In this document: in pieces, positions 6,325 through 60,736 of the stretch | Layout: each line of letters starts with the position of its first letter | Position numbering within the stretch: the first letter of the stretch is position 1 | Program-made: the position numbers and the translations under genes | Origin: Escherichia coli 042 | Lineage (GTDB): Bacteria > Pseudomonadota > Gammaproteobacteria > Enterobacterales > Enterobacteriaceae | DNA length: 64,000 bases | Reading direction: 5' to 3' (one strand) | Assembly: GCF_000027125.1 (NCBI RefSeq) | Contig: NC_017626.1 | Notes under the pieces: model-generated | Told to the model about the DNA's origin: nothing | The model's database searches: none | Seen by the model: the letters and a program-made list of their open reading frames with translations, nothing else

Positions 6325-9300
6325 ATGACAGAACAACAAAAATTGACCTTTACGGCCTTGCAGCAGCGGCTGGATTCGCTGATGCTGCGCGACAGACAGC
6401 GTTTTTCTCGCCGTCTGCACGGCGTGAAGAAGGTTAAAAATCCTGATGCACAACAGGCCATTTTCCAGGAGATGGCGAAAGAGATTGACCATGCGGCAGG
6501 GAAAGTCCTGCTGCGTGAAGCGGCACGACCGGAAATCACTTATCCGGACAATTTGCCGGTTAGTCAGAAAAAGCAGGACATTCTCGAAGCAATTCGTGAT
6601 CACCAGGTAGTGATCGTCGCCGGGGAAACGGGTTCCGGTAAAACGACTCAGCTACCGAAAATCTGTATGGAGCTGGGCCGCGGGATTAAAGGGCTGATCG
6701 GCCATACCCAGCCGCGTCGTCTGGCGGCGCGAACGGTGGCGAACCGTATTGCGGAAGAGCTGAAAACGGAGCCGGGCGGTTGCATCGGTTACAAAGTGCG
6801 TTTCAGCGATCACGTAAGTGATAACACGATGGTCAAGCTGATGACCGACGGTATCCTGCTGGCGGAGATCCAGCAAGACCGCCTGCTGATGCAGTACGAC
6901 ACCATCATTATTGACGAAGCGCACGAACGCAGCCTGAATATCGATTTTCTGCTCGGCTATTTGAAAGAGTTGCTGCCGCGGCGTCCTGACCTAAAAATCA
7001 TTATCACTTCCGCGACTATCGACCCGGAACGCTTTTCGCGCCACTTTAATAATGCGCCGATTATCGAAGTCTCCGGTCGGACCTATCCGGTGGAAGTGCG
7101 CTATCGCCCGATTGTTGAAGAAGCCGATGATACCGAGCGCGATCAGTTGCAGGCGATTTTTGACGCTGTAGACGAACTGAGCCAGGAAAGCCCTGGCGAC
7201 ATTCTGATCTTTATGAGTGGTGAGCGGGAAATTCGCGATACCGCCGATGCGCTGAACAAGCTGAACTTACGCCATACCGAAATCTTGCCGCTTTATGCGC
7301 GGCTTTCGAACAGCGAACAGAACCGCGTGTTCCAGTCGCACAGTGGACGGCGCATTGTGCTGGCGACCAACGTCGCGGAAACCTCGCTGACCGTACCGGG
7401 GATTAAATACGTTATCGACCCAGGTACGGCGCGTATCAGCCGCTACAGCTATCGCACTAAAGTGCAGCGTTTGCCGATTGAGCCGATTTCTCAGGCGTCT
7501 GCCAACCAGCGTAAAGGCCGCTGTGGTCGTGTGTCAGAAGGGATCTGTATTCGTCTCTATTCGGAAGATGATTTCCTGTCGCGCCCGGAGTTTACCGATC
7601 CGGAGATTCTGCGTACCAACCTGGCCTCGGTTATTTTACAGATGACCGCGTTGGGGCTGGGTGATATCGCCGCGTTCCCATTTGTCGAAGCGCCGGATAA
7701 ACGTAATATCCAGGATGGCGTGCGTCTGCTCGAAGAGCTGGGCGCGATCACCACTGATGAACAGGCCAGCGCCTATAAACTGACGCCGCTCGGTCGCCAG
7801 CTTTCGCAATTGCCTGTCGATCCTCGTCTGGCGCGTATGGTGCTGGAAGCGCAAAAACATGGCTGCGTGCGTGAGGCGATGATTATCACGTCCGCGCTCT
7901 CCATCCAGGATCCGCGCGAACGACCGATGGACAAACAGCAGGCATCGGACGAAAAACATCGTCGCTTCCACGACAAAGAATCCGACTTCCTCGCGTTTGT
8001 AAATCTGTGGAATTATCTTGGCGAGCAGCAAAAGGCGCTTTCTTCCAACGCCTTCCGTCGCCTGTGTCGTACCGATTATCTCAACTATCTGCGCGTGCGC
8101 GAATGGCAGGATATCTACACCCAGTTGCGCCAGGTAGTAAAAGAACTTGGCATTCCAGTTAACAGCGAACCGGCGGAGTATCGCGAAATTCACATCGCCT
8201 TACTGACCGGTTTGCTTTCCCATATCGGCATGAAAGATGCCGATAAACAAGAATATACCGGCGCACGTAACGCGCGTTTTTCCATCTTTCCCGGTTCTGG
8301 TTTATTCAAAAAGCCGCCGAAATGGGTAATGGTGGCGGAACTGGTAGAAACCAGCCGCCTGTGGGGGCGCATTGCGGCACGCATCGATCCAGAATGGGTG
8401 GAGCCAGTTGCTCAGCATTTAATTAAACGCACCTACAGCGAACCACACTGGGAACGGGCGCAGGGCGCGGTGATGGCAACGGAAAAAGTCACCGTTTACG
8501 GGTTGCCGATTGTTGCCGCGCGTAAGGTCAACTACAGCCAGATCGATCCGGCGTTATGTCGTGAACTCTTTATTCGCCACGCGCTGGTGGAAGGTGACTG
8601 GCAGACACGTCATGCATTCTTCCGTGAAAACCTGAAACTGCGGGCTGAAGTGGAAGAACTGGAACACAAAACACGTCGCCGCGATATTCTGGTGGATGAC
8701 GAAACGCTGTTTGAGTTTTATGACCAGCGCATCAGCCACGATGTGATCTCTGCACGTCACTTCGACAGCTGGTGGAAAAAAGTCAGCCGCGAAACGCCTG
8801 ATTTGCTCAACTTTGAAAAGAGCATGTTGATCAAAGAAGGGGCGGAAAAGATCAGCAAGCTGGATTACCCGAACTTCTGGCATCAGGGCAATCTCAAACT
8901 GCGTTTGAGCTATCAGTTTGAGCCGGGGGCAGATGCTGACGGTGTGACTGTGCATATCCCGCTGCCGTTACTTAACCAGGTTGAGGAGAGCGGGTTTGAG
9001 TGGCAGATCCCCGGTCTGCGCCGCGAACTGGTGATTGCTCTGATTAAATCGTTGCCGAAACCAGTACGCCGTAATTTTGTGCCCGCGCCAAACTACGCCG
9101 AAGCTTTTTTAGGCCGCGTCACACCGCTGGAATTGCCGTTGCTCGACAGCCTTGAACGAGAGCTGCGGCGGATGACTGGCGTCACCGTTGACCGCGAAGA
9201 CTGGCACTGGGATCAGGTGCCCGATCACCTGAAAATCACCTTCCGCGTGGTGGATGACAAAAACAAGAAGCTAAAAGAAGGGCGCTCATTACAGGATCTG

Positions 9301-51936: not shown

Positions 51937-52554
51937 ATGATTAAGGTGTATGGCGTACCCGGATGGGGCTCTACAATCAGTGAGCTGATGCTAACACTGG
52001 CTGATATTCCTTATCAGTTCGTTGATGTCAGTGGTTTTGACCACGAGGGAACCTCACGCGAGTTATTGAAAACCCTGAACCCGTTGTGTCAGATTCCGAC
52101 ACTGGCGCTGGAAAATGACGAGATTATGACGGAGACAGCGGCGATTGCATTGATGGTTCTCGATCGTCGCCCGGACCTTGCGCCACCGGTTGGGCGCGCC
52201 GAACGTCAGCAGTTTCAACGGCTATTGGTCTGGCTGGTTGCTAATGTCTATCCAACATTCACTTTCGCCGATTACCCTGAGCGTTGGGCTCCTGACGCAC
52301 CCGAACAGTTAAAGAATAATGTTATTGAATATCGTAAATCGCTTTATATCTGGCTGAATTCACAATTGACCGCTGAACCTTATGCCTTTGGCGAGCAACT
52401 AACGCTGGTGGACTGTTATCTCTGCACCATGCGCACATGGGGGCCGGGGCATGAATGGTTTCACGATAATGCGCAGAATATCAGCGCGATCGCTGAAGCT
52501 GTATGTCAGTTACCGAAATTACAAGAAGTATTAAAAAGGAATGTCATTATTTAA
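51937..52554 (+). CDS. yncG: Glutathione S-transferase homologue YncG
   Basis: 205-aa GST-fold ORF. Confidence 0.9.
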   Translation: MIKVYGVPGWGSTISELMLTLADIPYQFVDVSGFDHEGTSRELLKTLNPLCQIPTLALENDEIMTETAAIALMVLDRRPDLAPPVGRAERQQFQRLLVWLVANVYPTFTFADYPERWAPDAPEQLKNNVIEYRKSLYIWLNSQLTAEPYAFGEQLTLVDCYLCTMRTWGPGHEWFHDNAQNISAIAEAVCQLPKLQEVLKRNVII

Positions 52555-53093
52555 CAATAATGCCGGAGGTTAATGTTAATGAATCACTGGCGTAATTAAC
52601 TGGATATCCATTTGTTTGCTATGAATAGTAATTAAAGTTGGTACAACTATTTATATGATTGATGTAATTTCGTTTTTTATATGAAATATCAATTTAATAT
52701 AATCCGAAAATAAAACATCTTTTCGCATGTAGAGAAACATGTCGATATGATAGTGCAGTGCAGATCATGTCATCAGGGTAGGGCGGTAGCGTATTTAATC
52801 AGGGAAAGATTACGCAACGCTGCTTTTTTGTATTGAACGATTCGCATTTTATGTTTAAAAATTGCGATATTCCTTATTTCCTGAAGCTGTTTTTATTGCT
52901 TATACATGATCAAATACTCCTTACATAATTAAGGAGAACAAAATGGAACTTAATACACGCCAACAATTTGTATTACTTAAATAGACCAGTGAAGGTACGC
53001 ATCAGAACATCCGGTGAAGTGATTAATATTTCGTTGAATATTTCTCCCGATTTTTGAAACCTGCTGCTGTAGAAATTCTGAACAGGAGGAATT

Positions 53094-53378
53094 ATGCCTT
53101 TAGCAGCCAAACTCACCGACAAAGGCACCCAGCACGACGGTTATTACGAGACCGTCATCACCGCCGGGTCATCCACCGTCTTTATCGATGGTCTTCCCGC
53201 AGCCCGTCAGGGAGATCCGCTGACGCCGCATGCTAAACCGAAGCATCCCCCTCATCCCCGTAAAATCGCCAGAGGTTCTTCAACCGTCTTTATTGACGGC
53301 CTGCCCGCCGCCAGAAGCGGTGATGCTGTTGACTGCGGCGGCGTGGTTATTGGTGGCGGTACGGTAAATATAGGCTGA
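53094..53378 (+). CDS. PAAR-repeat protein (T6SS spike tip)
   Basis: 94-aa ORF with two LPAAR motifs (VFIDGLPAARQGD, VFIDGLPAARSGD); SD aggagg; 18 bp upstream of vgrG. Confidence 0.8.
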   Translation: MPLAAKLTDKGTQHDGYYETVITAGSSTVFIDGLPAARQGDPLTPHAKPKHPPHPRKIARGSSTVFIDGLPAARSGDAVDCGGVVIGGGTVNIG

Positions 53379-53396
53379 TATGTCTGAGAGGTATTT

Positions 53397-55802
53397 ATGT
53401 CCTTAAAAGGTCTTCGCTTTACGCTGGAGGTTGACGGCCAGGAGCCGGACACCTTTGCAGTGGTGAATTTCAGGTTAATCCAGAACCAGTCATATCCGTT
53501 TGTGATGAGTGTGGATGTTGCCAGCGACTCTTTTATGCAGACGGCGGAGATGCTGCTGGAGAAGAAGGCGACACTGACCATCTGGCAGGGCGCAGTGGCG
53601 CAGCGTTATGTCACCGGCGTGGTGGCGGGTTTTGGCATGCAGGAGAATAACGGCTGGCAGATGCGTTATCACCTGCGTATTGAGCCGCCGTTATGGCGGT
53701 GCGGGCTGCGGCAGAACTTTCGTATCTTCCAGCAGCAGGATATCCGGACGATATCGGCCACGTTACTGAACGAGAACGGCGTCACGGAGTGGACGCCGCT
53801 GTTTTATGAGGACCATCCGGCGCGGGAGTTCTGTGTCCAGTACGGGGAGTCGGACCTGGCGTTTCTGTCCCGGCTGTGGGCGGAGGAGGGTCTTTTCTTC
53901 TTTGAGCGGTTTGCGGCGGACAGTCCGGAGCAGAAGCTGACGCTGTGCGACGATGTGGCGGGGCTGTCACAGGCGGGGGAGTTTCCGTTTAACCCGGACA
54001 CATCGGCAGGTGCGGAGACGGAGTGTGTCAGTATGTTCCGTTATGAGGCGCATGTCCGCCCGTCATCGGTGCAGAGCCAGGATTACACCTTTAAGGTGCC
54101 GGACTGGCCGGGGATGTATGAGCAGCAGGGTGAGAACCTGAACGGACAGCTGGAGCAGTATGAGATATTTGATTATCCGGGAAGGTACAAGGATGAACAG
54201 CACGGCAAGGATTTCACGCTGTACCAGATGGAGAGCCTGCGCAGTGATGCGGAAAAGGCCACAGGGCAGAGTAATTCGCCGAAGCTGTGGCCGGGAACGC
54301 GGTTTATGCTGACGGGGCATCCGCAGAAGATGCTGAACCGTGAATGGCAGGTGGTACAGAGCATACTGTCAGGAAACCAGCCGCAGGCGCTGCACGGCAG
54401 CCAGGGAAAGGGAACCACGCTGGGCAATCAGTTAGAGGTGATACCGGCGGACCGGACGTGGCGTCCACGGCTGCAAAACAAACCGAAGGTGGACGGGCCA
54501 CAGAGCGCCATCGTCACCGGTCCTGCGGGAGAGGAAATCTTCTGCGATGAACATGGACGGGTACGGGTGAAGTTCCACTGGGACCGTTATCACGGGATGA
54601 CGGAGGCGAGTTCATGCTGGGTGCGGGTATCGCAGGCGTGGGCGGGGCCGGGGTTCGGTAACCTGGCGATACCACGGGTGGGTCAGGAGGTGATAGTGGA
54701 CTTCCTGAACGGCGACCCGGACCAGCCGATAATCATGGGGCGGACGTACCATGAGGACAACCGTTCGCCGGGCGACCTGCCGGGAACGAAGACGCAGATG
54801 ACCATCCGGTCAAAAACCTATAAAGGAAGCGGATTTAACGAGCTGCGGTTTGAAGACGCCACCAGTAATGAGCAGGTGTATATCCATGCCCAGAAGAACA
54901 TGGATACGGAGGTGCTCAACGACCGGACAACGGATGTGAAACATGACCATACGGAAACCATCGGGAACGACCAGAAGATAACGGTGGTGAAGGGGCAGAC
55001 GGTTCAGGTCGGGACCAGAAAAGAAGGGGGCCACGACCAGAGTATCACGGTGGCGAACGACCGGTGCATCACGGTACGTAATGACCAGACGCTGCAGGTG
55101 ACGAATGACCGGACGGTGAGCGTGAGTAATGATGACGGCCTGTACGTCAGAAATGACCGTAAAGTGACGGTGGAAGGGAAGCAGGAGCATAAGACGACGG
55201 GGAACCATATCAGTCTGGTGGAGGGAAAGCACAGCCTGGTGGTGAAGGGGGACCTGGCGAGGAAGGTGAGTGGCGCGCTGGGGATAAAGGTGGACGGGGA
55301 TATCGTGCTGGAGAGCAGCAGCCGGATAAGCCTGAAGGTGAGTGGCTCGTTTGTGGTCATCCATTCAGGGGGCGTGGACATCGTCGGGCCGAAAATCAAT
55401 CTCAATAGCGGCGGTAGTCCGGGGACGCCGGTGCCGGCGCTGCAACCGGCGGTGCTGAAGACACTGGGGGATGAGAAGAGTGGTGATGGCAGTGATTCCG
55501 GAGAAGAAAATGAAGACTCTGGAGGGAACTGCGTGACCGGAAGTGGTGGTGATGATCGAGGTGACGATGAGGATGAACCTGAAAAATATACTCTCCAGTT
55601 CCATTTTACAGACGATGACGGGATACCGTATTCAGAAACCCGCTACATTGCCTTCTTTGAGGATGGCACGCAGACCCGCGGAGAAACGGATGAAGAGGGG
55701 TATACAGAGCGTTTTTTTGTATCTAGCAAACATGAAATTAAAGTGAAGTTGTTATTTGCGAATGATGATTTTCTCTCAATGGAAGGACACTATGGACGAT
55801 AA
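53397..55802 (+). CDS. vgrG: Type VI secretion spike protein VgrG with C-terminal extension
   Basis: 801-aa ORF with gp27/gp5-like N-terminal two thirds, beta-helix repeat region (TVSVSNDDGLYVRNDRKVTV...), then an acidic Gly/Ser/Asp linker and a ~70-aa C-terminal domain. Confidence 0.9.
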   Translation: MSLKGLRFTLEVDGQEPDTFAVVNFRLIQNQSYPFVMSVDVASDSFMQTAEMLLEKKATLTIWQGAVAQRYVTGVVAGFGMQENNGWQMRYHLRIEPPLWRCGLRQNFRIFQQQDIRTISATLLNENGVTEWTPLFYEDHPAREFCVQYGESDLAFLSRLWAEEGLFFFERFAADSPEQKLTLCDDVAGLSQAGEFPFNPDTSAGAETECVSMFRYEAHVRPSSVQSQDYTFKVPDWPGMYEQQGENLNGQLEQYEIFDYPGRYKDEQHGKDFTLYQMESLRSDAEKATGQSNSPKLWPGTRFMLTGHPQKMLNREWQVVQSILSGNQPQALHGSQGKGTTLGNQLEVIPADRTWRPRLQNKPKVDGPQSAIVTGPAGEEIFCDEHGRVRVKFHWDRYHGMTEASSCWVRVSQAWAGPGFGNLAIPRVGQEVIVDFLNGDPDQPIIMGRTYHEDNRSPGDLPGTKTQMTIRSKTYKGSGFNELRFEDATSNEQVYIHAQKNMDTEVLNDRTTDVKHDHTETIGNDQKITVVKGQTVQVGTRKEGGHDQSITVANDRCITVRNDQTLQVTNDRTVSVSNDDGLYVRNDRKVTVEGKQEHKTTGNHISLVEGKHSLVVKGDLARKVSGALGIKVDGDIVLESSSRISLKVSGSFVVIHSGGVDIVGPKINLNSGGSPGTPVPALQPAVLKTLGDEKSGDGSDSGEENEDSGGNCVTGSGGDDRGDDEDEPEKYTLQFHFTDDDGIPYSETRYIAFFEDGTQTRGETDEEGYTERFFVSSKHEIKVKLLFANDDFLSMEGHYGR

Positions 55803-56583
55803 TAATCAAACTTCTGGACAACCAAAGCCAGAGCCAGAAGAATGTGTGAAAGAGCAAAAAATAACTGATCATTTTAAAATAATGATTGATAAGGCTCGTA
55901 AGGCACAAAAGTTGGTTTTGATAAAAAGAGCAGATGATCTTTTGAGATGGGGAGCACAGGAGGAATATGATTTCAGTAAGATCTTTGGTGTTAAAGGAAA
56001 TAAGGAGGTTAATATAAGAAAATATGGACATAATACAGGTAGGCGCATGAATGCTAGATTTCTTATGATGGATGGTGTGAGAAGATTAATGATTATAGCT
56101 AATGATTTAACAATGAGCAGTTTTATAAATTATACAGGTTGTAATGAATTTGCAGCATTCGTCAGCCCAAGTAAGGATATGCCCTATATAATTAACATAG
56201 GCGCAAAATTTGAGTATAGAGATGGCAAAAAAAATCCAGTAACGGGAAAGGATTCTCATGTTGCTACTTTATGTCATGAAATGTCTCATATTCAGTGGTA
56301 TTATGGGGATAATAAAAAAGGTGGTATGTGGTCACAGGATTATACAACTACTGATAAATATTCAACGTGCAAAGAGGATGAAGTTTCATATGACGAACAT
56401 ATCCGTATTGCAACTAAACTGATCTCTAAACAAAAAGATCAAATATTCGAGAATGCATATAACATAGAAAGATATTTTGAAATAAGATTAATTGAAAGTG
56501 AGATAGACTCGATTAATGATGAAATATTAAGCAATTCAGTTAAGAAAAAAATAGCGGAATTAGAAAAAGCACTTCTCCATTAA
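55792..56583 (+). CDS. Putative T6SS cargo effector with HExxH zinc-metallopeptidase motif
   Basis: 263 codons from ATG 55792, which overlaps the last 11 bp of vgrG; motif TLCHEMSHIQWYYG (HEXXH); no signal peptide or TM segment. Confidence 0.6.
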   Translation: MDDNNQTSGQPKPEPEECVKEQKITDHFKIMIDKARKAQKLVLIKRADDLLRWGAQEEYDFSKIFGVKGNKEVNIRKYGHNTGRRMNARFLMMDGVRRLMIIANDLTMSSFINYTGCNEFAAFVSPSKDMPYIINIGAKFEYRDGKKNPVTGKDSHVATLCHEMSHIQWYYGDNKKGGMWSQDYTTTDKYSTCKEDEVSYDEHIRIATKLISKQKDQIFENAYNIERYFEIRLIESEIDSINDEILSNSVKKKIAELEKALLH

Positions 56584-56606
56584 CTAATAAGTCGAGAAAT
56601 ATATTA

Positions 56607-57428
56607 ATGCTGCAAGCTATAAAAAAAATCATAATAATGACAATCGTAAATATTATATTTTTCTATTCCTTTCAATCGACTGCGGATGAAATGGTTTTAA
56701 TAAAAAAATACGGGTTTGGGCTTGAGAGAGATATCAAAGGAAGGCCATTAATTTATCCTATCGAAAATTATGATGAGTGTAAGAAAAAATGCAATCATAT
56801 GAATTATATAGCGGATGTCAATGCTCAATTAGCTATGAGTAAAAAAAATAACAGGATTTTTGCTAACATAACCTTTACTAACAATAGCTCTACCACGTAT
56901 TTTTTTTCTAAATATTACCTACCTATGAAAGTAAAAGATGGAAAAGGAGATGAATATGATGCGATATGCAAAAAACCATTCAGAATCAACTCTGGGAATA
57001 TCACGTTGGACTACTTAGGTGGTTCATGTCCTTTTGAAATTAATACGAATCCTGAACGGTGGAATACTATTAAACCAGGTCGTAGTTTTTTGTTGAGTAT
57101 AACCTTAAATGATATGTATGCCTTTATACCAGGAGATAATTATTATTTTATAAAATCATCTGGCTATAAATTTGTTAATGACAAGTGGTTTACACTCAAA
57201 TCAATCAATAATATTTTTCTTTATTTTTTAAATTTAAAAATTAATTGTGCTGATGATTTTTTTGATATTAATAATTTTACTACATGTGATAATTTGTTAT
57301 TAGATGAAAAAAAACACTTTTTTATTAATCAGTTATGGGCAATTGAGGATGAAAAAAATTCTATTTACGTCACCCCTGATGAAATTTCTATAAGTATAGA
57401 CGGCGATAACTTAAAGTTGCCATATTAG
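56607..57428 (+). CDS. Putative cognate immunity protein (secreted/periplasmic)
   Basis: 273-aa ORF 23 bp after the effector; N-terminal signal peptide (IIIMTIVNIIFFYSFQSTA/DE); AT-rich; no recognisable domain. Confidence 0.5.
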   Translation: MLQAIKKIIIMTIVNIIFFYSFQSTADEMVLIKKYGFGLERDIKGRPLIYPIENYDECKKKCNHMNYIADVNAQLAMSKKNNRIFANITFTNNSSTTYFFSKYYLPMKVKDGKGDEYDAICKKPFRINSGNITLDYLGGSCPFEINTNPERWNTIKPGRSFLLSITLNDMYAFIPGDNYYFIKSSGYKFVNDKWFTLKSINNIFLYFLNLKINCADDFFDINNFTTCDNLLLDEKKHFFINQLWAIEDEKNSIYVTPDEISISIDGDNLKLPY

Positions 57429-57447
57429 GAATCTGTGAAAGAACAAG

Positions 57448-57936
57448 GTGCGCCGCTTTTTTGTACTAAATAATTCGCATTTTAGTCACGGCAGAGAAGA
57501 AATCCATCTTCATATTGTTTGCGATGTCCCTGATGAACTTATTGATTTCACGTTTGAATGGAAAGGTCAGAAGAAATTATGCGTGGCAGTCTCCTTTTGG
57601 TCAATAATAGCAGAACAAAAGAAAGAGCCAGAAATGACGGTCAGATATTATATCAGTTCTGCTGATTTAACCGCAAAAAAGTTCGCCACAGCGATACGAA
57701 ATCACTGGCACGTGGAGAATAAGCTGCACTGGCGTCTGGACGTGGTAATGAACGAAGACGACTGCAAAATAAGAAGAGGAAACGCCGCAGAATTATTTTC
57801 AGGGATACGGCACATCGCTATTAATATTTTAACGAATGATAAGGTATTCAAGGCAGGGTTAAGACGCAAGATGCGAAAAGCAGCTATGGACAGAGACTAC
57901 CTCGCGTCAGTCCTTGCGGGGAGCGGGCTTTCGTAA
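57448..57936 (+). pseudogene. H-repeat-associated (ISAs1-family transposase) C-terminal remnant
   Basis: 162-aa ORF whose C-terminal ~110 aa ([63 protein letters not shown]...) matches the C-terminus of H-rpt / ISAs1 transposases; N-terminal catalytic part absent. Confidence 0.75.
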
Positions 57937-58044
57937 TCTTGCCCTGGCGATCGAATAGCGCAGATGACGGTGCTCTAAATTTGAATCTAATAAGCCGGTG
58001 TTATTTTTCATCCACTATTAAAATCTTGACACAACGAGGCAACA

Positions 58045-58605
58045 ATGAAAAAAAGCAAAAAAATTAAAACAATGAACCATCAAAATAATAGCGGGATACA
58101 AAATCAACCAGACTATCACATCGAAATAGAAAGAAAAAATATGGTAAGATTGCTTGATGAACGTATTGATAAAGTTTACGGTTCATTGCTAGGACCAATG
58201 AAAAAGAAAAATATAGATAAAATACGTCATTTTACACTTGATGTAATGGTGTTTATTCTTGACACGAACCCTCGTGTTTGTAATAAATTATCCAGGGAAA
58301 TAATATCTTTAGCGCAAAATACCTTCATTGAAAAAAACGTTAATTTTTCAACTTTTAATAATGAACAGCATAGAATAAGGGAGTATATGAATGAAGGTGG
58401 TGGAATACGATGGTTTACATGGGATAACCCCGAGATATCTTTTGTTCGTGCATCTTTTGGCCTTTTTGTCAAAATGGAAACAAAAGGTGATCATGAACAT
58501 ACACTAAGTGACACATTTCTTCAGATTGTTGAGTGTGTTAATTTAAATATAGGACTTATTGCAAAAGATGAACTGGTAAAAATCATCAATAAACACTTTA
58601 TGTAA
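58045..58605 (+). CDS. Hypothetical protein (AT-rich orphan)
   Basis: 186-aa ORF in a low-GC block downstream of the H-rpt remnant; no recognisable motif. Confidence 0.4.
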   Translation: MKKSKKIKTMNHQNNSGIQNQPDYHIEIERKNMVRLLDERIDKVYGSLLGPMKKKNIDKIRHFTLDVMVFILDTNPRVCNKLSREIISLAQNTFIEKNVNFSTFNNEQHRIREYMNEGGGIRWFTWDNPEISFVRASFGLFVKMETKGDHEHTLSDTFLQIVECVNLNIGLIAKDELVKIINKHFM

Positions 58606-58964
58606 AAATATACTTCTGTATGAAGTTATAATAATACAGTGAAAATCATCAAATTATTAATTAATGATGCTCTTTGTTATTATTTACTTTTTACAATTGA
58701 ATCAGGGGTTTTATTTTCTGTAGTAAAGTTGTATTTTTGCTAAAGGTGATAAAGTACAGGTGTTTATATTAAATTAGAACTCCCCTTAATTATCATAAAT
58801 ACAAAGAGGTGAAAACATGCGGGGGTGTTTTCGTTAAATAATACCATGGTGAATTAATAACATGCTATCAGTGATATACATATTTTCTCTAACAAAGTTT
58901 TAGTAAAATTACGCGTAGTAAGAAGATTCCGCCAAAGATTCCATATAATAATATTAAGGTTGTT

Positions 58965-59600
58965 ATGAATAAAGGTAATAGATTACAACAGTTAGAAGAT
59001 GCGTGTCGTGATATTATTAAAATTAACATGTGGTATGAACTCCCCGATTATGTATTTTTTTCAATATCTGACACCATCGATGGGACGAGTGATGAATTCG
59101 CAATAAATGTGTATAAAAATATCGATAAAAGTCTTCTTGAAATATTATTGCATCCATCTGTTTTACTGTCAGTTGTTGAGTCCTTACAAAGTAATACTAT
59201 AGCTGAGTATATCGTGAAATTGTCTGAAATAGAGATGAATTATGACGACTTGCTAATATCGGATGTTAAATCATGTCTTTTTATCAACTATGGATTCAAT
59301 AACAGTGAATCGGTTGCGCTATTTAATAAGATTTACCGCGAATTAAAAGATATTGTAAAATCATCAAGAGTACATATAGATCATGAGAAAGATATTTTTG
59401 ATGGCCTTAATCAAATCTTGGCTTTTTCCGATAATAATAAACATGAGTATTTTTTATATATAAAGGCATATTGGCTCAGTTTATACTTTTGTGAAATTTC
59501 ACAGAACGTGAGAGAAAGAGATAAGTTGTCATTTTATTATAATGAATTTTCTGTCCGATTTCCTAATGTTGTCCTATATCCGTCATGCTACAAATTGTAA
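58965..59600 (+). CDS. Hypothetical protein (AT-rich orphan)
   Basis: 211-aa ORF in a low-GC block; no signal peptide; no recognisable motif. Confidence 0.4.
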   Translation: MNKGNRLQQLEDACRDIIKINMWYELPDYVFFSISDTIDGTSDEFAINVYKNIDKSLLEILLHPSVLLSVVESLQSNTIAEYIVKLSEIEMNYDDLLISDVKSCLFINYGFNNSESVALFNKIYRELKDIVKSSRVHIDHEKDIFDGLNQILAFSDNNKHEYFLYIKAYWLSLYFCEISQNVRERDKLSFYYNEFSVRFPNVVLYPSCYKL

Positions 59601-59779
59601 GGCTTGGCACCTGAAATTCATTGTTAATTCGAGACGCTTGATTGTCCACTATATCAAAACAGTCATACCTCGGAATTTTCTCGCATTAGTCCATACGGTA
59701 TTCAATATTCGCAACTGTGCCCTGAAATAAAAAACTGCAAAACTGCTTTTTCTTGACCTGTCCCAATCACGCAAGACTA

Positions 59780-59926
59780 CTTTTAGTAGAGACCTCCAGC
59801 TATGTCGATTTTAGTGCCGCCCGCGCATTTTATACAAAACAGGGCTTTATTAATGAAGCTATAATACGCAATTACTATGATGTTGGTGAGGATAAATTAA
59901 TCTTCACTAAAAATATGCAATCGTGA
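59780..59926 (+). pseudogene. C-terminal remnant of a RimI-like GNAT acetyltransferase
   Basis: Hand translation ...LLLVETSSYVDFSAARAFYTKQGFINEAIIRNYYDVGEDKLIFTKNMQS* resembles the C-terminal motif of RimI-type GNATs; frame is closed by TGA about 55 codons upstream, so no full-length gene. Confidence 0.4.
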
Positions 59927-59992
59927 GATAAAATATGCTTTTAACTCATATTGAAACATTGCTTAAGCAACTTGGTTGCTGCATATGATTCT

Positions 59993-60562
59993 TTAGCCCG
60001 CGGTGACTCGCTTGCCGCTGGTAACAAACGTGCCAGCACCTAAGTGATGTAGTGTATTGAGTTTATCATCATCAAACTGCCAGCGGCCTTCGACAAATAC
60101 CCGTGCGTCTGCCGCTGCTGATACCACCTCGCCAAACAGCGTGTCGTATTTTTCTTGCGCGGAAGTCGCAGGTAGCAAGCGGCACTCCATCCACGCCAGA
60201 CATTTTTCCTCGACCAGAGGCAAACCAAGTACCGGACCTTTCACTACTGGAATGCCGTAGCAATTAAATTTATCTTCTTCACGACCCGACACACTTCCCA
60301 CCGCCCACGTCCAGTTAGTTGCTGCAACGCCCGGGATAACGATGCCAAATTTACCGTTACGTTCAATCAACTCCCTGGTCCATGTCGATTTATCTACCAC
60401 GATCGCAACACGTGGCGGTTCAAACTCTACCGGCATCGACCAGGCCGCAGCCATCACATTACGTCGCTGTGATTTTTCATCAAAAGTTGTTATCAAAATA
60501 GTTGGGCCATGATTTAACAGACGGCTGGCATGGTGTAATTCGACAGGGATGAATCGGCTCAC
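59993..60562 (-). CDS. yddH: Flavin reductase-like protein YddH
   Basis: 189-aa ORF at the conserved position before nhoA. Confidence 0.9.
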   Translation of the reverse strand: MSRFIPVELHHASRLLNHGPTILITTFDEKSQRRNVMAAAWSMPVEFEPPRVAIVVDKSTWTRELIERNGKFGIVIPGVAATNWTWAVGSVSGREEDKFNCYGIPVVKGPVLGLPLVEEKCLAWMECRLLPATSAQEKYDTLFGEVVSAAADARVFVEGRWQFDDDKLNTLHHLGAGTFVTSGKRVTAG

Positions 60563-60736
60563 GGTATCGCCTCGCTAAGAAGGGGGTTTTAAAAGCGTAG
60601 CTCGTAACGCTATAAGTAACGAAATTAACGGGATTGGCGATTTGCGAACGTGATGCATGTCCGCGATCGCACAAAATAGCCGGTGCGGCGTCTATTCCAG
60701 GTTATAAGTTGAGAAAACCACTAAGGGAAACGCCTG

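Follow-up and report, generated by a model that had tools for sequence, protein, structure and literature searches.

Two probable orphan immunity genes and an H-rpt scar beside the vgrG islet of Escherichia coli 042

Introduction

Ross et al. are said to have described, in 2019, toxin-less poly-immunity loci, the acquired interbacterial defence (AID) clusters. Polyimmunity loci are described in PMC3482391, and the small ORFs behind rhs genes are immunity genes, with orphan modules being common (PMC3150448). The mobile element H-rpt goes along with Rhs C-terminal tips (PMC3032704). For toxins with the EndoU_bacteria domain (PF14436), the described immunity partners include the Imm28, SuFu, SUKH and MafI types (Zhang et al. 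2012, PMC3482391; Salmonella SPI-6, PMC10469887).

Here, we consider the distal end of a vgrG islet in a 64,000-nt stretch of E. coli 042 DNA (the window), where an H-rpt remnant is followed by two ORFs, ORF186 and ORF211. Leftover antidote genes are a known and fairly ordinary feature, and ORF186 and ORF211 are most likely genes of this kind, because their relatives elsewhere always follow a deaminase-like or an RNase toxin. A first-pass annotation placed three ORFs of 162, 186 and 211 aa at 57448-57936, 58045-58605 and 58965-59600, and these coordinates and lengths are correct. What it proposed about their origin and function held up in part, as discussed below.

The H-rpt remnant is an inactive scar

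The H-rpt sequences at the two ends of the islet are as follows.

52800-52953, plus strand: solo H-rpt left end, running from the left inverted repeat (IRL) CAGGGAAAGATTACG into the transposase ORF as far as its 11th nt; proximal limit of the vgrG islet
57434-57946, plus strand: internally deleted H-rpt (ISAs1 family), with 95-97% blastn identity to full copies in K-12 (ydcC), PCP07014 and EC42405
57448-57936, plus strand: 162-aa ORF with a GTG start, non-functional; only 57475-57936 is transposase-derived (the C-terminal ~164 of 378 residues)

The left end of the distal copy is degenerate at 57434-57457. H-rpt nt 26-52 (57458-57484) are then joined at 57484 to H-rpt nt ~829-1291 (57484-57946), an internal deletion of nt ~53-828, or about 776 bp, that leaves the last ~164 codons of the transposase. 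The right inverted repeat (IRR), CGTAATCTTGCCCTG, is intact at 57932-57946. It terminates in CCCTG at every locus compared, and the flanks differ each time.

The first-pass annotation took the 162-aa ORF for the C-terminal part of an ISAs1 (H-rpt) transposase, and profile searches agree. The ORF covers positions 201-314 of the 314 in the NCBIfam ISAs1 transposase model NF033564 (E 7.5e-34; 117 bits against a cut-off of 70) and positions 139-200 of the 200 in Pfam DDE_Tnp_1, and aligns at 72% identity with a full 378-aa ISAs1 transposase over residues 215-378 of the latter. The first ~9 codons of the ORF, the GTG included, are not transposase but derive from H-rpt left-end DNA that is non-coding. 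No complete ~378-aa DDE transposase was found at the remnant, where only residues ~215-378 are kept; in an identical genome, PGAP labels the same stretch as a pseudogene, “ISAs1 family transposase, missing N-terminus”.

No direct repeat indicative of a target-site duplication surrounds either pair of H-rpt ends (57434/57946 or 52800/57946). With most of the element lost internally, a degenerate left repeat and no target-site duplication, the remnant is best read as an inactive rearrangement scar. The solo left end at 52800 sits exactly where homology to vgrG-less strains ends, and the whole vgrG module was considered as a composite H-rpt transposon, with the IRL at 52800 as one boundary and the IRR at 57946 as the other. 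That candidate was dropped, and the structure left as a rearrangement scar, because a target duplication is absent and the two boundaries come from distinct H-rpt subtypes, the two left ends being 76% identical to each other.

ORF186 and ORF211 are conserved genes without recognized motifs

Downstream of the scar lie the following features.

57975-58044, plus strand: ORF186 leader, with a GAGG Shine-Dalgarno sequence 7 nt 5' of the ATG; common to vgrG-less strains from 57975 on
58045-58605, plus strand: ORF186 (186 aa), a predicted cytoplasmic orphan immunity protein of a family found behind an Rhs C-terminal YwqJ-like deaminase toxin
58606-58964, no strand: AT-rich spacer between ORF186 and ORF211 (GC 0.27), with an AAGG Shine-Dalgarno sequence 5 nt 5' of the ORF211 ATG and without a toxin remnant
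58965-59600, plus strand: ORF211 (211 aa), a predicted cytoplasmic, all-alpha orphan immunity protein of a family found behind an EndoU RNase T6SS effector

The GC content of both ORFs is 0.30, and that of the spacer between them 0.27, versus 0.51 in the flanking yddH and nhoA. AT-rich spacers had been noted before both ORFs; the description fits the second, but the first (57937-58044) has a GC content of 0.42 and is not very AT-rich.

Judged by their conservation, both ORFs are genuine coding sequences, because full-length homologues in other genera, with 53-72% identity, give dN/dS values of 0.11-0.29 (0.11-0.21 for the ORF186 family and 0.26-0.29 for the ORF211 family). Many residues are invariant, and the alternative frames of the two ORFs carry no comparable conservation signal. 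It is next to impossible that AT-rich non-coding DNA has produced the two ORFs by chance, as spurious open frames. Such a reading would suit their base composition, their lack of a family annotation, and a promoter and terminator scan in which sites around the ORFs were no commoner than in shuffled sequences, but the full-length conservation across genera refutes it. Nor are they conserved core genes, the other state that the first-pass annotation had weighed against its own reading: the whole segment is accessory, and 175 of 5,426 complete E. coli genomes carry at least 80% of its length. Among the 176 window-type genomes, identity of the copies is 99% or more.

The first-pass annotation also saw no recognizable motifs and no signal peptides in the two ORFs, and was right on both counts. 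Searches of Pfam, NCBIfam, PADLOC and PHROGs gave nothing above a curated cut-off, and sub-threshold matches to Phage_min_tail and lipoamide DH were set aside as not credible. The highest Kyte-Doolittle value over 15 residues within the first 45 is −0.58 for ORF186 and 0.54 for ORF211, versus 2.35 for a neighboring 273-aa ORF. Hence, there is no N-terminal hydrophobic segment and no signal peptide, and both proteins are predicted to be cytoplasmic.

The search against polymorphic-toxin immunity families that had been suggested as a check came back empty. Neither ORF matched an immunity model in Pfam or NCBIfam at E ≤ 0.1, and neither matched the described Imm6, Imm28, SUKH, SuFu or MafI. AF2 models were mediocre (pLDDT 67 for the all-helical ORF211 and 54 for ORF186), and fold searches with them returned only generic helical repeats. 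PDB sequence searches with both ORFs, and with both of the toxins described below, found nothing. The accessions WP_000748591 and WP_001032567 are mentioned in none of the papers found. An exhaustive profile search of 1.84 billion representatives with the ORF186 alignment recovered the same family only. The ORF211 family comprises 20 clusters in a few Enterobacteriaceae, and a profile search with its alignment added only fragments. The label “aminopeptidase”, given to some ORF211 relatives by some sources, has no profile or structure support and was treated as an annotation artefact.

Relatives of both ORFs follow toxin genes

What might the two genes encode? Their relatives in other genomes lie directly behind toxin genes, and the toxin differs between the two families. 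For ORF186, the toxin is the C-terminal domain of an Rhs protein. In Citrobacter portucalensis (JANBWU010000062), genes for VgrG, DUF2169 and a 1481-aa PAAR-like Rhs, whose last ~132 residues form the domain, are followed, 3 nt past the Rhs stop, by an ORF186 homologue (58% identity). In E. coli (locus L007), the order is an orphan Rhs fragment with this C-terminal domain (81% identity), an ORF186 homologue (72%) and a full ISAs1. At locus L006, an 89-aa remnant of the same domain lies 5' of the same ORF186-family gene. The 3-nt gap recurs in three co-oriented contexts, and the Rhs C-terminal domains in the contexts of this family are 80-100% identical to each other. The domain has a CAE...CxxC motif and matches the YwqJ deaminase model at E 7.4e-5 with 23.4 bits, below the Pfam gathering score of 25.9; a PDB sequence search found no relative of it. 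The closest toxin-linked relative of ORF186 is only 72% identical, which makes cross-protection uncertain.

For ORF211, the toxin is an EndoU-type RNase (EndoU_bacteria, 57 bits, cut-off 25.3). At locus L022, an intact 388-aa EndoU effector lies behind DUF2169 and Tox-PAAR-like genes, with an ORF211 homologue 16 nt downstream. Other contexts hold a frameshifted effector (Pseudocitrobacter, L010-12), an 88-aa remnant (Shigella, L015) and an EndoU end at a contig edge (L020). Thus, ORF211 relatives stand 16 nt behind the effector or its remnant, in the same orientation, in four contexts, and the EndoU domains are 71-97% identical to each other. E. albertii, too, has a plainly recognizable EndoU 3'-end relic upstream of its ORF211-family copy. 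The closest toxin-linked relative of ORF211 is only 63% identical, and here too cross-protection is uncertain. By these neighborhoods, the ORF186 and ORF211 families are two tiny putative Enterobacteriaceae immunity families that are absent from Pfam.

The window itself holds neither toxin: tblastn with the deaminase-like and EndoU toxins found neither in its 64 kb, and a blastn search of 5,426 complete E. coli genomes was negative for both, an absence at blastn sensitivity. The first-pass suggestion of orphan toxin-tip or immunity cassettes is thus divided by the evidence, with the synteny elsewhere supporting immunity families but the tblastn result counting against toxin tips. The toxin-linked modules and the window share DNA homology only from ~20-24 nt 5' of the immunity start codons onward, which sets the cassette boundaries. 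What may be left of the deaminase-like toxin gene, a candidate vestige of its 3' end, lies at about 57997-58040 (~50 nt), collinear with the toxin 3' ends of L007 and L005 with a 10-nt gap. Its score was reached by 13 of 2000 shuffles in the comparison with L007 and by 208 of 2000 in that with Citrobacter, a weak signal, so that the ORF186 leader may hold a degenerate trace of that toxin gene. Upstream of ORF211 in the window, tblastn with EndoU toxins was negative for a remnant and shuffle tests were not significant.

The genes probably belong to an array independent of the islet

The first-pass annotation viewed the two ORFs as cassettes accumulated by the vgrG islet, and the locus at large argues otherwise. 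Two further features matter here.

57947-57974, no strand: 28 bp of unassigned DNA that separate the H-rpt right end from sequence common to vgrG-less strains, without a counterpart in L002/L003 or past the IRR of other loci
59771-59923, plus strand: C-terminal 51 codons of a GNAT N-acetyltransferase gene, the last member of the resident segment

In strains LHM10-1 and XJ5.2 (L002/L003) and in those of L035-37, the locus reads yncG, 90-aa, 118-aa and 140-aa ORFs, ORF186, ORF211, an intact GNAT gene and yddH, and contains no vgrG, rhs or H-rpt/ISAs1. Their stretch from ORF186 through GNAT has about 92% nt identity to the window. For the 140-aa member, a homologue with 48% identity lies directly behind a full-length Rhs in E. 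coli ECONIH1, bringing the array members with toxin-linked homologues to three (the 140-aa ORF, ORF186 and ORF211), of which two are in the window. The GNAT remnant matches residues 105-155 of the intact 155-aa GNAT of XJ5.2 at 90% identity (tblastn) and gives a weak RimI match in a profile search; the remainder was lost by a 463-bp deletion whose junction, from blastn breakpoints, is at 59765-59767.

Could the ORFs nevertheless be distal cassettes of the present vgrG islet, gained by recombination and serving the effectors of this VgrG? Their position just downstream of PAAR-VgrG-effector genes and H-rpt recalls classic Rhs elements, and the homologous families occur elsewhere downstream of vgrG-rhs. 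However, we consider this improbable. First, both ORFs lie outside the H-rpt IRR at 57946. Second, the islet-specific DNA is exactly 52800-57974, and the same array occurs in the vgrG-less strains described above. Third, the islet VgrG effector is an M35-like peptidase with a signal-peptide partner, unrelated to the deaminase-like or the EndoU toxin.

It is less likely still, to the point of being barely credible, that the ORFs are passenger genes of ISAs1/H-rpt or accessory genes of another type, such as phage defence genes or a toxin-antitoxin pair. They do adjoin an IS remnant, their DNA is AT-rich and accessory, and H-rpt flanks homologues at L006, L007 and L022. However, the ORFs lie beyond the inverted repeat rather than between repeats, they occur without H-rpt, and the side on which H-rpt is found is not constant, being upstream here and downstream of the homologues at those three loci. 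PADLOC and PHROGs gave no match, and the strict adjacency to polymorphic toxin domains elsewhere also argues against this reading.

The preferred reading, an array independent of the islet, also takes in the other variants of the locus. In window coordinates, the position adjoining the H-rpt IRR is 57947 here, 58759 in EC42405 and 59351, a point within ORF211, in PCP07014; Nissle has an ISAs1 fragment next to GNAT, and K-12 has the IRR next to pptA. The comparison across E. coli that the first-pass annotation had proposed, with alternative cassettes in mind, did reveal structural variants; these are an array-only state and nested H-rpt junctions, and the array looks independent of the islet. 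Together, ORF186 and ORF211 look like members of an older resident array, eroded by H-rpt-linked deletions, rather than cargo of the vgrG islet.

Proposed function and significance

We consider it probable that ORF186 and ORF211 are unrelated orphan immunity genes for polymorphic T6SS toxins that act in the cytoplasm, within a resident array independent of the islet, with the H-rpt remnant as a scar. Their status as toxin-less orphans is proposed because their relatives follow toxins elsewhere, the window encodes neither toxin, and blastn is negative in complete E. coli genomes. Each would be a small, soluble, helical protein that binds and blocks one toxin delivered by the T6SS of a competitor, the target being the deaminase-like Rhs C-terminal domain for ORF186 and an EndoU-type RNase for ORF211; the cell itself would carry neither cognate toxin. 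The lack of signal peptides agrees with toxins whose targets are cytoplasmic nucleic acids. The resident array between yncG and yddH would have held at least three orphan immunity genes and a GNAT gene, of which ORF186 and ORF211 survive. Since the H-rpt right end is found at successively deeper points of the array in different strains, H-rpt-linked insertion or deletion is probably removing the array stepwise. The sequences themselves show the identity of the remnant, the coding status of the ORFs, the synteny rule in other genomes, the absence of the toxins and the structural variants of the locus; toxin neutralization, and any protective benefit today, are inferred.

Are the genes still in use? 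It is possible, if rather doubtful, that they are former immunity genes, now functionless relics that are intact here through recent clonal expansion and are drifting to loss. Within E. coli, dN/dS is 0.88 for ORF186 and 0.44 for ORF211, based on few substitutions, which suggests weak constraint. There are independent frameshifts, in ORF211 of LHM10-1 and XJ5.2 and in ORF186 of L036, and one or both genes are deleted in EC42405, PCP07014, GN25, Nissle and K-12; both are missing through deletion from many lineages. The failure of blastn to detect the cognate toxins in complete E. coli genomes points the same way, and the near-identity of the 176 window-type copies is compatible with clonal spread. 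However, the window lineage and thousands of assemblies have both ORFs in intact form and conserve their start codons and Shine-Dalgarno sites; the ORFs are 96-97% conserved, versus 87% for the intervening spacer in a comparison with XJ5.2; and Citrobacter, Pseudocitrobacter and E. coli that bear the toxins occur in overlapping habitats.

A bolder version of the preferred reading, which we offer only tentatively and regard as unlikely in full, is that the toxin-less yncG-yddH immunity array of some E. coli, with its two undescribed immunity families, actively guards the strain against the T6SS of Citrobacter, Pseudocitrobacter and other E. coli. It would be an enterobacterial counterpart of Bacteroidales acquired interbacterial defence, remodeled or deleted by H-rpt.

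What are the implications? First, two families annotated as “hypothetical protein” or mislabelled “aminopeptidase” in thousands of E. coli assemblies gain a testable functional label, and each is assigned its own toxin, either the deaminase-like Rhs C-terminal domain or the 388-aa EndoU effector; both pairs lend themselves to direct cloning. Second, DNA beside a vgrG islet need not belong to the islet; here, it would be an older orphan-immunity array eroded from a fixed H-rpt end. The locus is a natural example of hotspot turnover and not a new kind of system.

Comparison with known systems

The kept part of the H-rpt resembles the H-rpt/ISAs1 elements of E. coli Rhs elements (YdcC, YhhI), with 95-97% nt identity to the K-12 ydcC copy, the same terminal inverted repeats (CAGGGnAAGAT...) and a place at the distal end of a vgrG/rhs islet. 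Unlike a full H-rpt, it has lost about 776 bp internally and has a degenerate left repeat and no target-site duplication.

As in Rhs toxin/immunity modules (PMC3150448; Koskiniemi et al. 2014, PMC3967940), ORF186 homologues in Citrobacter and E. coli lie directly behind an Rhs C-terminal toxin, and orphan copies gather downstream of rhs genes beside H-rpt, as seen at L006 and L007. In contrast, the window has the immunity gene alone: it lacks an rhs core or CT fragment that could serve to restore a toxin through recombination, and its copy is not downstream of any rhs gene. ORF211 homologues are placed like the known EndoU immunity partners, directly behind an EndoU effector in a DUF2169/PAAR-like T6SS module, and the family is, like Imm28, predicted to be mostly alpha-helical and cytoplasmic. 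Unlike Imm28, SuFu, SUKH and MafI, it has no sequence match to any of these types and is confined to a few Enterobacteriaceae.

Finally, the array differs from AID clusters in being very small, in having no dedicated integrase or mobile machinery, and in the frequent pseudogenization of its members. It would nonetheless resemble poly-immunity and AID loci in combining heterogeneous putative immunity genes (the 140-aa ORF, ORF186 and ORF211) without their cognate toxins, and protection against the T6SS toxins of other species is plausible.

Organization of the locus

The chromosome region in the window runs yncG ... yddH-nhoA-yddE-narVWYZ. ORF coordinates and lengths from the first-pass annotation match exactly.

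Features from yncG to yddH (window coordinates)
52800-52953, solo H-rpt left end, the first feature after yncG
53095-53379, PAAR
53397-55802, vgrG
55756-56583, M35-like peptidase ORF
56607-57428, 273-aa ORF with a hydrophobic segment at the N-terminus
57448-57936, 162-aa transposase-remnant ORF
58045-58605, ORF186
58965-59600, ORF211
59771-59923, C-terminal stub of a GNAT acetyltransferase
59993-60562, minus strand, yddH

GC content is 0.27-0.33 across 55.7-59.6 kb, except in the H-rpt remnant (0.43) and the first spacer (0.42); core genes have 0.51. The C-terminus of the vgrG ORF (55543-55802) is a long, acidic, Gly/Ser-rich extension, and the ORF overlaps that of the M35-like effector (start 55756) by 47 nt; this may reflect translational coupling, or the extension may be an adaptor region between VgrG and effector. 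The 273-aa ORF, with its signal peptide, is presumed to encode the immunity partner of this effector. It is whole in the window and frameshift-split in many near-identical assemblies (219+58, 240, 251, 106+167 aa), and likewise in Ecol_316 and Nissle, suggesting either a slippage-prone site or decay.

ORF186 and ORF211 belong to small families linked to toxins

Their conservation shows that ORF186 and ORF211 are genes. Full-length relatives of ORF186 share 92, 72, 58 and 57% identity with it, and 74 positions are invariant; relatives of ORF211 range from 91% to 53% identity, with 70 invariant positions. In Nei-Gojobori comparisons with divergent relatives (dS ~0.4-1.9), ORF186 gives dN/dS values of 0.11-0.21 and ORF211 values of 0.26-0.29, and plausible Shine-Dalgarno sequences precede both. 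The two families are tiny. When 1.84 billion representatives were searched exhaustively by HMM, the ORF186 alignment returned seven proteins, all of its own family; a profile built on the ORF211 alignment returned 20 clusters, whose named sources are E. coli, Shigella, E. albertii and Pseudocitrobacter. Neither ORF has a match in Pfam, NCBIfam, PADLOC, PHROG or PDB sequence.

The ORF186 family is linked to an Rhs toxin. In Citrobacter portucalensis, VgrG and DUF2169 genes are followed by an Rhs of 1481 aa whose N-terminus is PAAR-like, and an ORF186 homologue begins 3 nt past the Rhs stop. The Rhs C-terminal domain, ~130 residues after a DPxGL-type motif, carries "...YHGKCAEVDA...ACTTCNPLL" and weakly matches dCMP_cyt_deam_1. 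It is probably deaminase-like, with the reservation that its YwqJ-deaminase score (E 7.4e-5, 23.4 bits) just misses the cut-off of 25.9. At two E. coli loci near cobUST, this toxin domain (81% identity), as the end of an orphan 440-aa Rhs fragment in one and an 89-aa remnant in the other, is followed by a 72%-identical ORF186 homologue and then a full H-rpt.

The ORF211 family is linked to an EndoU effector. One Logan assembly (L022) encodes, in this order, DUF2169, Tox-PAAR-like, an effector of 388 aa with EndoU_bacteria at its end, an ORF211 homologue (63% identical, 16 nt after the effector) and a full ISAs1. Pseudocitrobacter faecalis has the same module with a frameshift-split effector (EndoU 57 bits). 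Shigella flexneri has an 88-aa EndoU remnant 16 nt upstream of an ORF211-family copy, and a metagenome contig opens with the last 38 EndoU codons, followed by another copy. In E. albertii, the 3' end of EndoU survives as a DNA relic that is unmistakable (local alignment score 110, reached by 0 of 2000 shuffles).

ORF186 and ORF211 as probable orphan immunity genes

In an established arrangement, a polymorphic toxin is followed by its cognate immunity gene (PMC3150448, PMC3482391). The contexts of the ORF186 and ORF211 families match it, with one toxin type per family. By genomic-context criteria both ORFs count as immunity genes; neither protein matches the profile of any described immunity family. 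Their lack of signal peptides is consistent with toxins whose targets are cytoplasmic nucleic acids. We consider it probable that both genes are immunity-derived.

What has become of the toxins? Neither, used as a tblastn query, matched anywhere in the 64-kb window. Toxin-plus-immunity DNA was also compared by blastn with the complete genomes of 5,426 E. coli. Matches were confined to the immunity halves (186 and 237 genomes; one place per genome), with homology beginning ~20-24 nt before the start codons; the toxin halves matched in 0 of the 5,426. The DNA preceding ORF186 holds, at best, a degenerate vestige of ~50 nt of the toxin 3' end, collinear and weak (score reached by 13 of 2000 shuffles), and no such vestige lies upstream of ORF211. 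In the window, ORF186 and ORF211 thus look like immunity-only orphans; toxin tips they are not.

Within E. coli, constraint appears weak. The window copy of ORF186 differs from that of XJ5.2 by 4 synonymous and 15 non-synonymous changes (dN/dS 0.88); for ORF211, compared over its N-terminal 157 codons, the counts are 7 and 13 (dN/dS 0.44). Frameshifts disrupt ORF211 in LHM10-1 and XJ5.2, and ORF186 in one comparison locus (L036). Orphan immunity genes may be useful only episodically. The nearest toxin-linked relatives are 72% (ORF186) and 63% (ORF211) identical, and the window alleles may have kept or lost the ability to neutralise a circulating toxin; we are far less confident of present-day protection than of an immunity-derived origin.

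The H-rpt remnant

The first-pass annotation took the 162-aa ORF for the C-terminal part of an ISAs1/H-rpt transposase, and this is borne out. The ORF matches only the last third of NF033564 (ISAs1 transposase; positions 201-314 of 314, E 7.5e-34) and positions 139-200 of 200 of DDE_Tnp_1, and shares 72% identity with residues 215-378 of a complete 378-aa ISAs1 protein. The ydcC-carrying H-rpt of K-12 and other strains is 1,291 bp long; its right ~463 bp match 57484-57946 at 95-97% nucleotide identity, and 57458-57484 corresponds to H-rpt nt 26-52; therefore, ~776 bp have been lost inside the element. The GTG start and first codons of the ORF derive from the non-coding H-rpt left end. Position 57946 is the last of the right inverted repeat, CGTAATCTTGCCCTG; seven other copies, each with different flanking DNA, end in exactly the same way. 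The remnant is an inactive scar.

Full H-rpt copies elsewhere adjoin further H-rpt fragments, before or after them. For example, transposase-coding sequence begins directly after the right inverted repeat in L022 (6604 onward), and an additional left-repeat-like site lies 179 bp upstream in another locus (L004, 7532). Hence, tandem H-rpt debris is common at such islands.

By the array we mean ORF186, ORF211, GNAT and the small ORFs between yncG and yddH. Its left boundary is fixed, being the H-rpt right end from strain to strain, and the point of the array that adjoins this end lies deeper and deeper.

Junctions of the H-rpt right end (window coordinates)
57947, window strain
58759, EC42405; ORF186 lost, ORF211 retained
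59351, PCP07014; ORF211 truncated
ISAs1 fragment adjoining GNAT, Nissle 1917 and ~435 other genomes
pptA, K-12

This nested series fits either deletion next to an IS or recombination in which H-rpt copies with different vgrG/rhs islands took part. Other deletions at the locus are IS1-bounded (AST240) or 2.5 kb long (GN25).

A probable older array beside a vgrG islet

The history of the locus was read against LHM10-1 and XJ5.2, which are collinear with the window in three blocks, all at ~92-93% identity: 52001-52799 (yncG flank), 57975-59767 (ORF186-ORF211 segment) and 59765-60600 (GNAT 3' end and yddH). The window-specific insert is therefore 52800-57974, comprising two H-rpt pieces and the PAAR-vgrG-M35-273aa module (the islet) between them. 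The islet is bracketed by an H-rpt left end, whose inverted repeat at 52800 is the exact point where homology to vgrG-less strains ends, and an internally deleted H-rpt (57434-57946) with a whole right repeat. No target duplication surrounds these pieces, and their left ends are ~76% identical, so they represent different H-rpt subtypes; the islet may or may not once have travelled as a unit between H-rpt ends. The 28 bp at 57947-57974 (GCGATCGAATAGCGCAGATGACGGTGCT), between the H-rpt right end and DNA common to array-only strains, have no counterpart in the loci compared.

Instead of the insert, LHM10-1 and XJ5.2 have 1,152 bp with three small AT-rich ORFs of 90, 118 and 140 aa (7870-8962 of the XJ5.2 locus, L003). 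The 90- and 118-aa ORFs have no profile match and no informative context. In E. coli ECONIH1 (L024, 6949-7338), a 48%-identical homologue of the 140-aa ORF overlaps the stop codon of a full-length 1617-aa Rhs, in the order VgrG, DcrB-like, Rhs, homologue, Rhs fragment, ISAs1. The 140-aa ORF would therefore be a third orphan immunity gene, and the array would hold at least three. LHM10-1 and XJ5.2 also have a whole 155-aa GNAT gene. The window stub (59753-59926; GNAT-derived 59771-59923) keeps only the last 51 codons, the rest having been taken by a 463-bp deletion relative to these strains (junction 59765-59767); K-12 has pptA at the GNAT position. Loci L035-37 represent another array-only variant.

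What the first-pass annotation observed is confirmed. It had the gene class right (orphan immunity cassettes, an H-rpt scar) and the ownership and history wrong: it assigned the ORFs to the vgrG islet, and LHM10-1 and XJ5.2 carry them with no vgrG, rhs or ISAs1 at this locus. ORF186 and ORF211 would instead be residents of an older, toxin-less immunity array, itself possibly the residue of a vanished rhs island, and the present islet would have been placed beside it.

The core gene yddH (59959-60600 with its flank) is unusually divergent among E. coli, with 89% nucleotide identity to K-12 and 93% to Nissle and XJ5.2. Against XJ5.2, dS is 0.29 for yddH and only 0.04 for ORF186, a mismatch possibly due to recombination around a hypervariable locus or to more recent spread of the array.

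What is new is a pair of immunity families, unnamed and of narrow distribution, within an array of orphans. This is a useful annotation and a neat locus history; the kind of gene is already known and will not surprise a T6SS/Rhs specialist.
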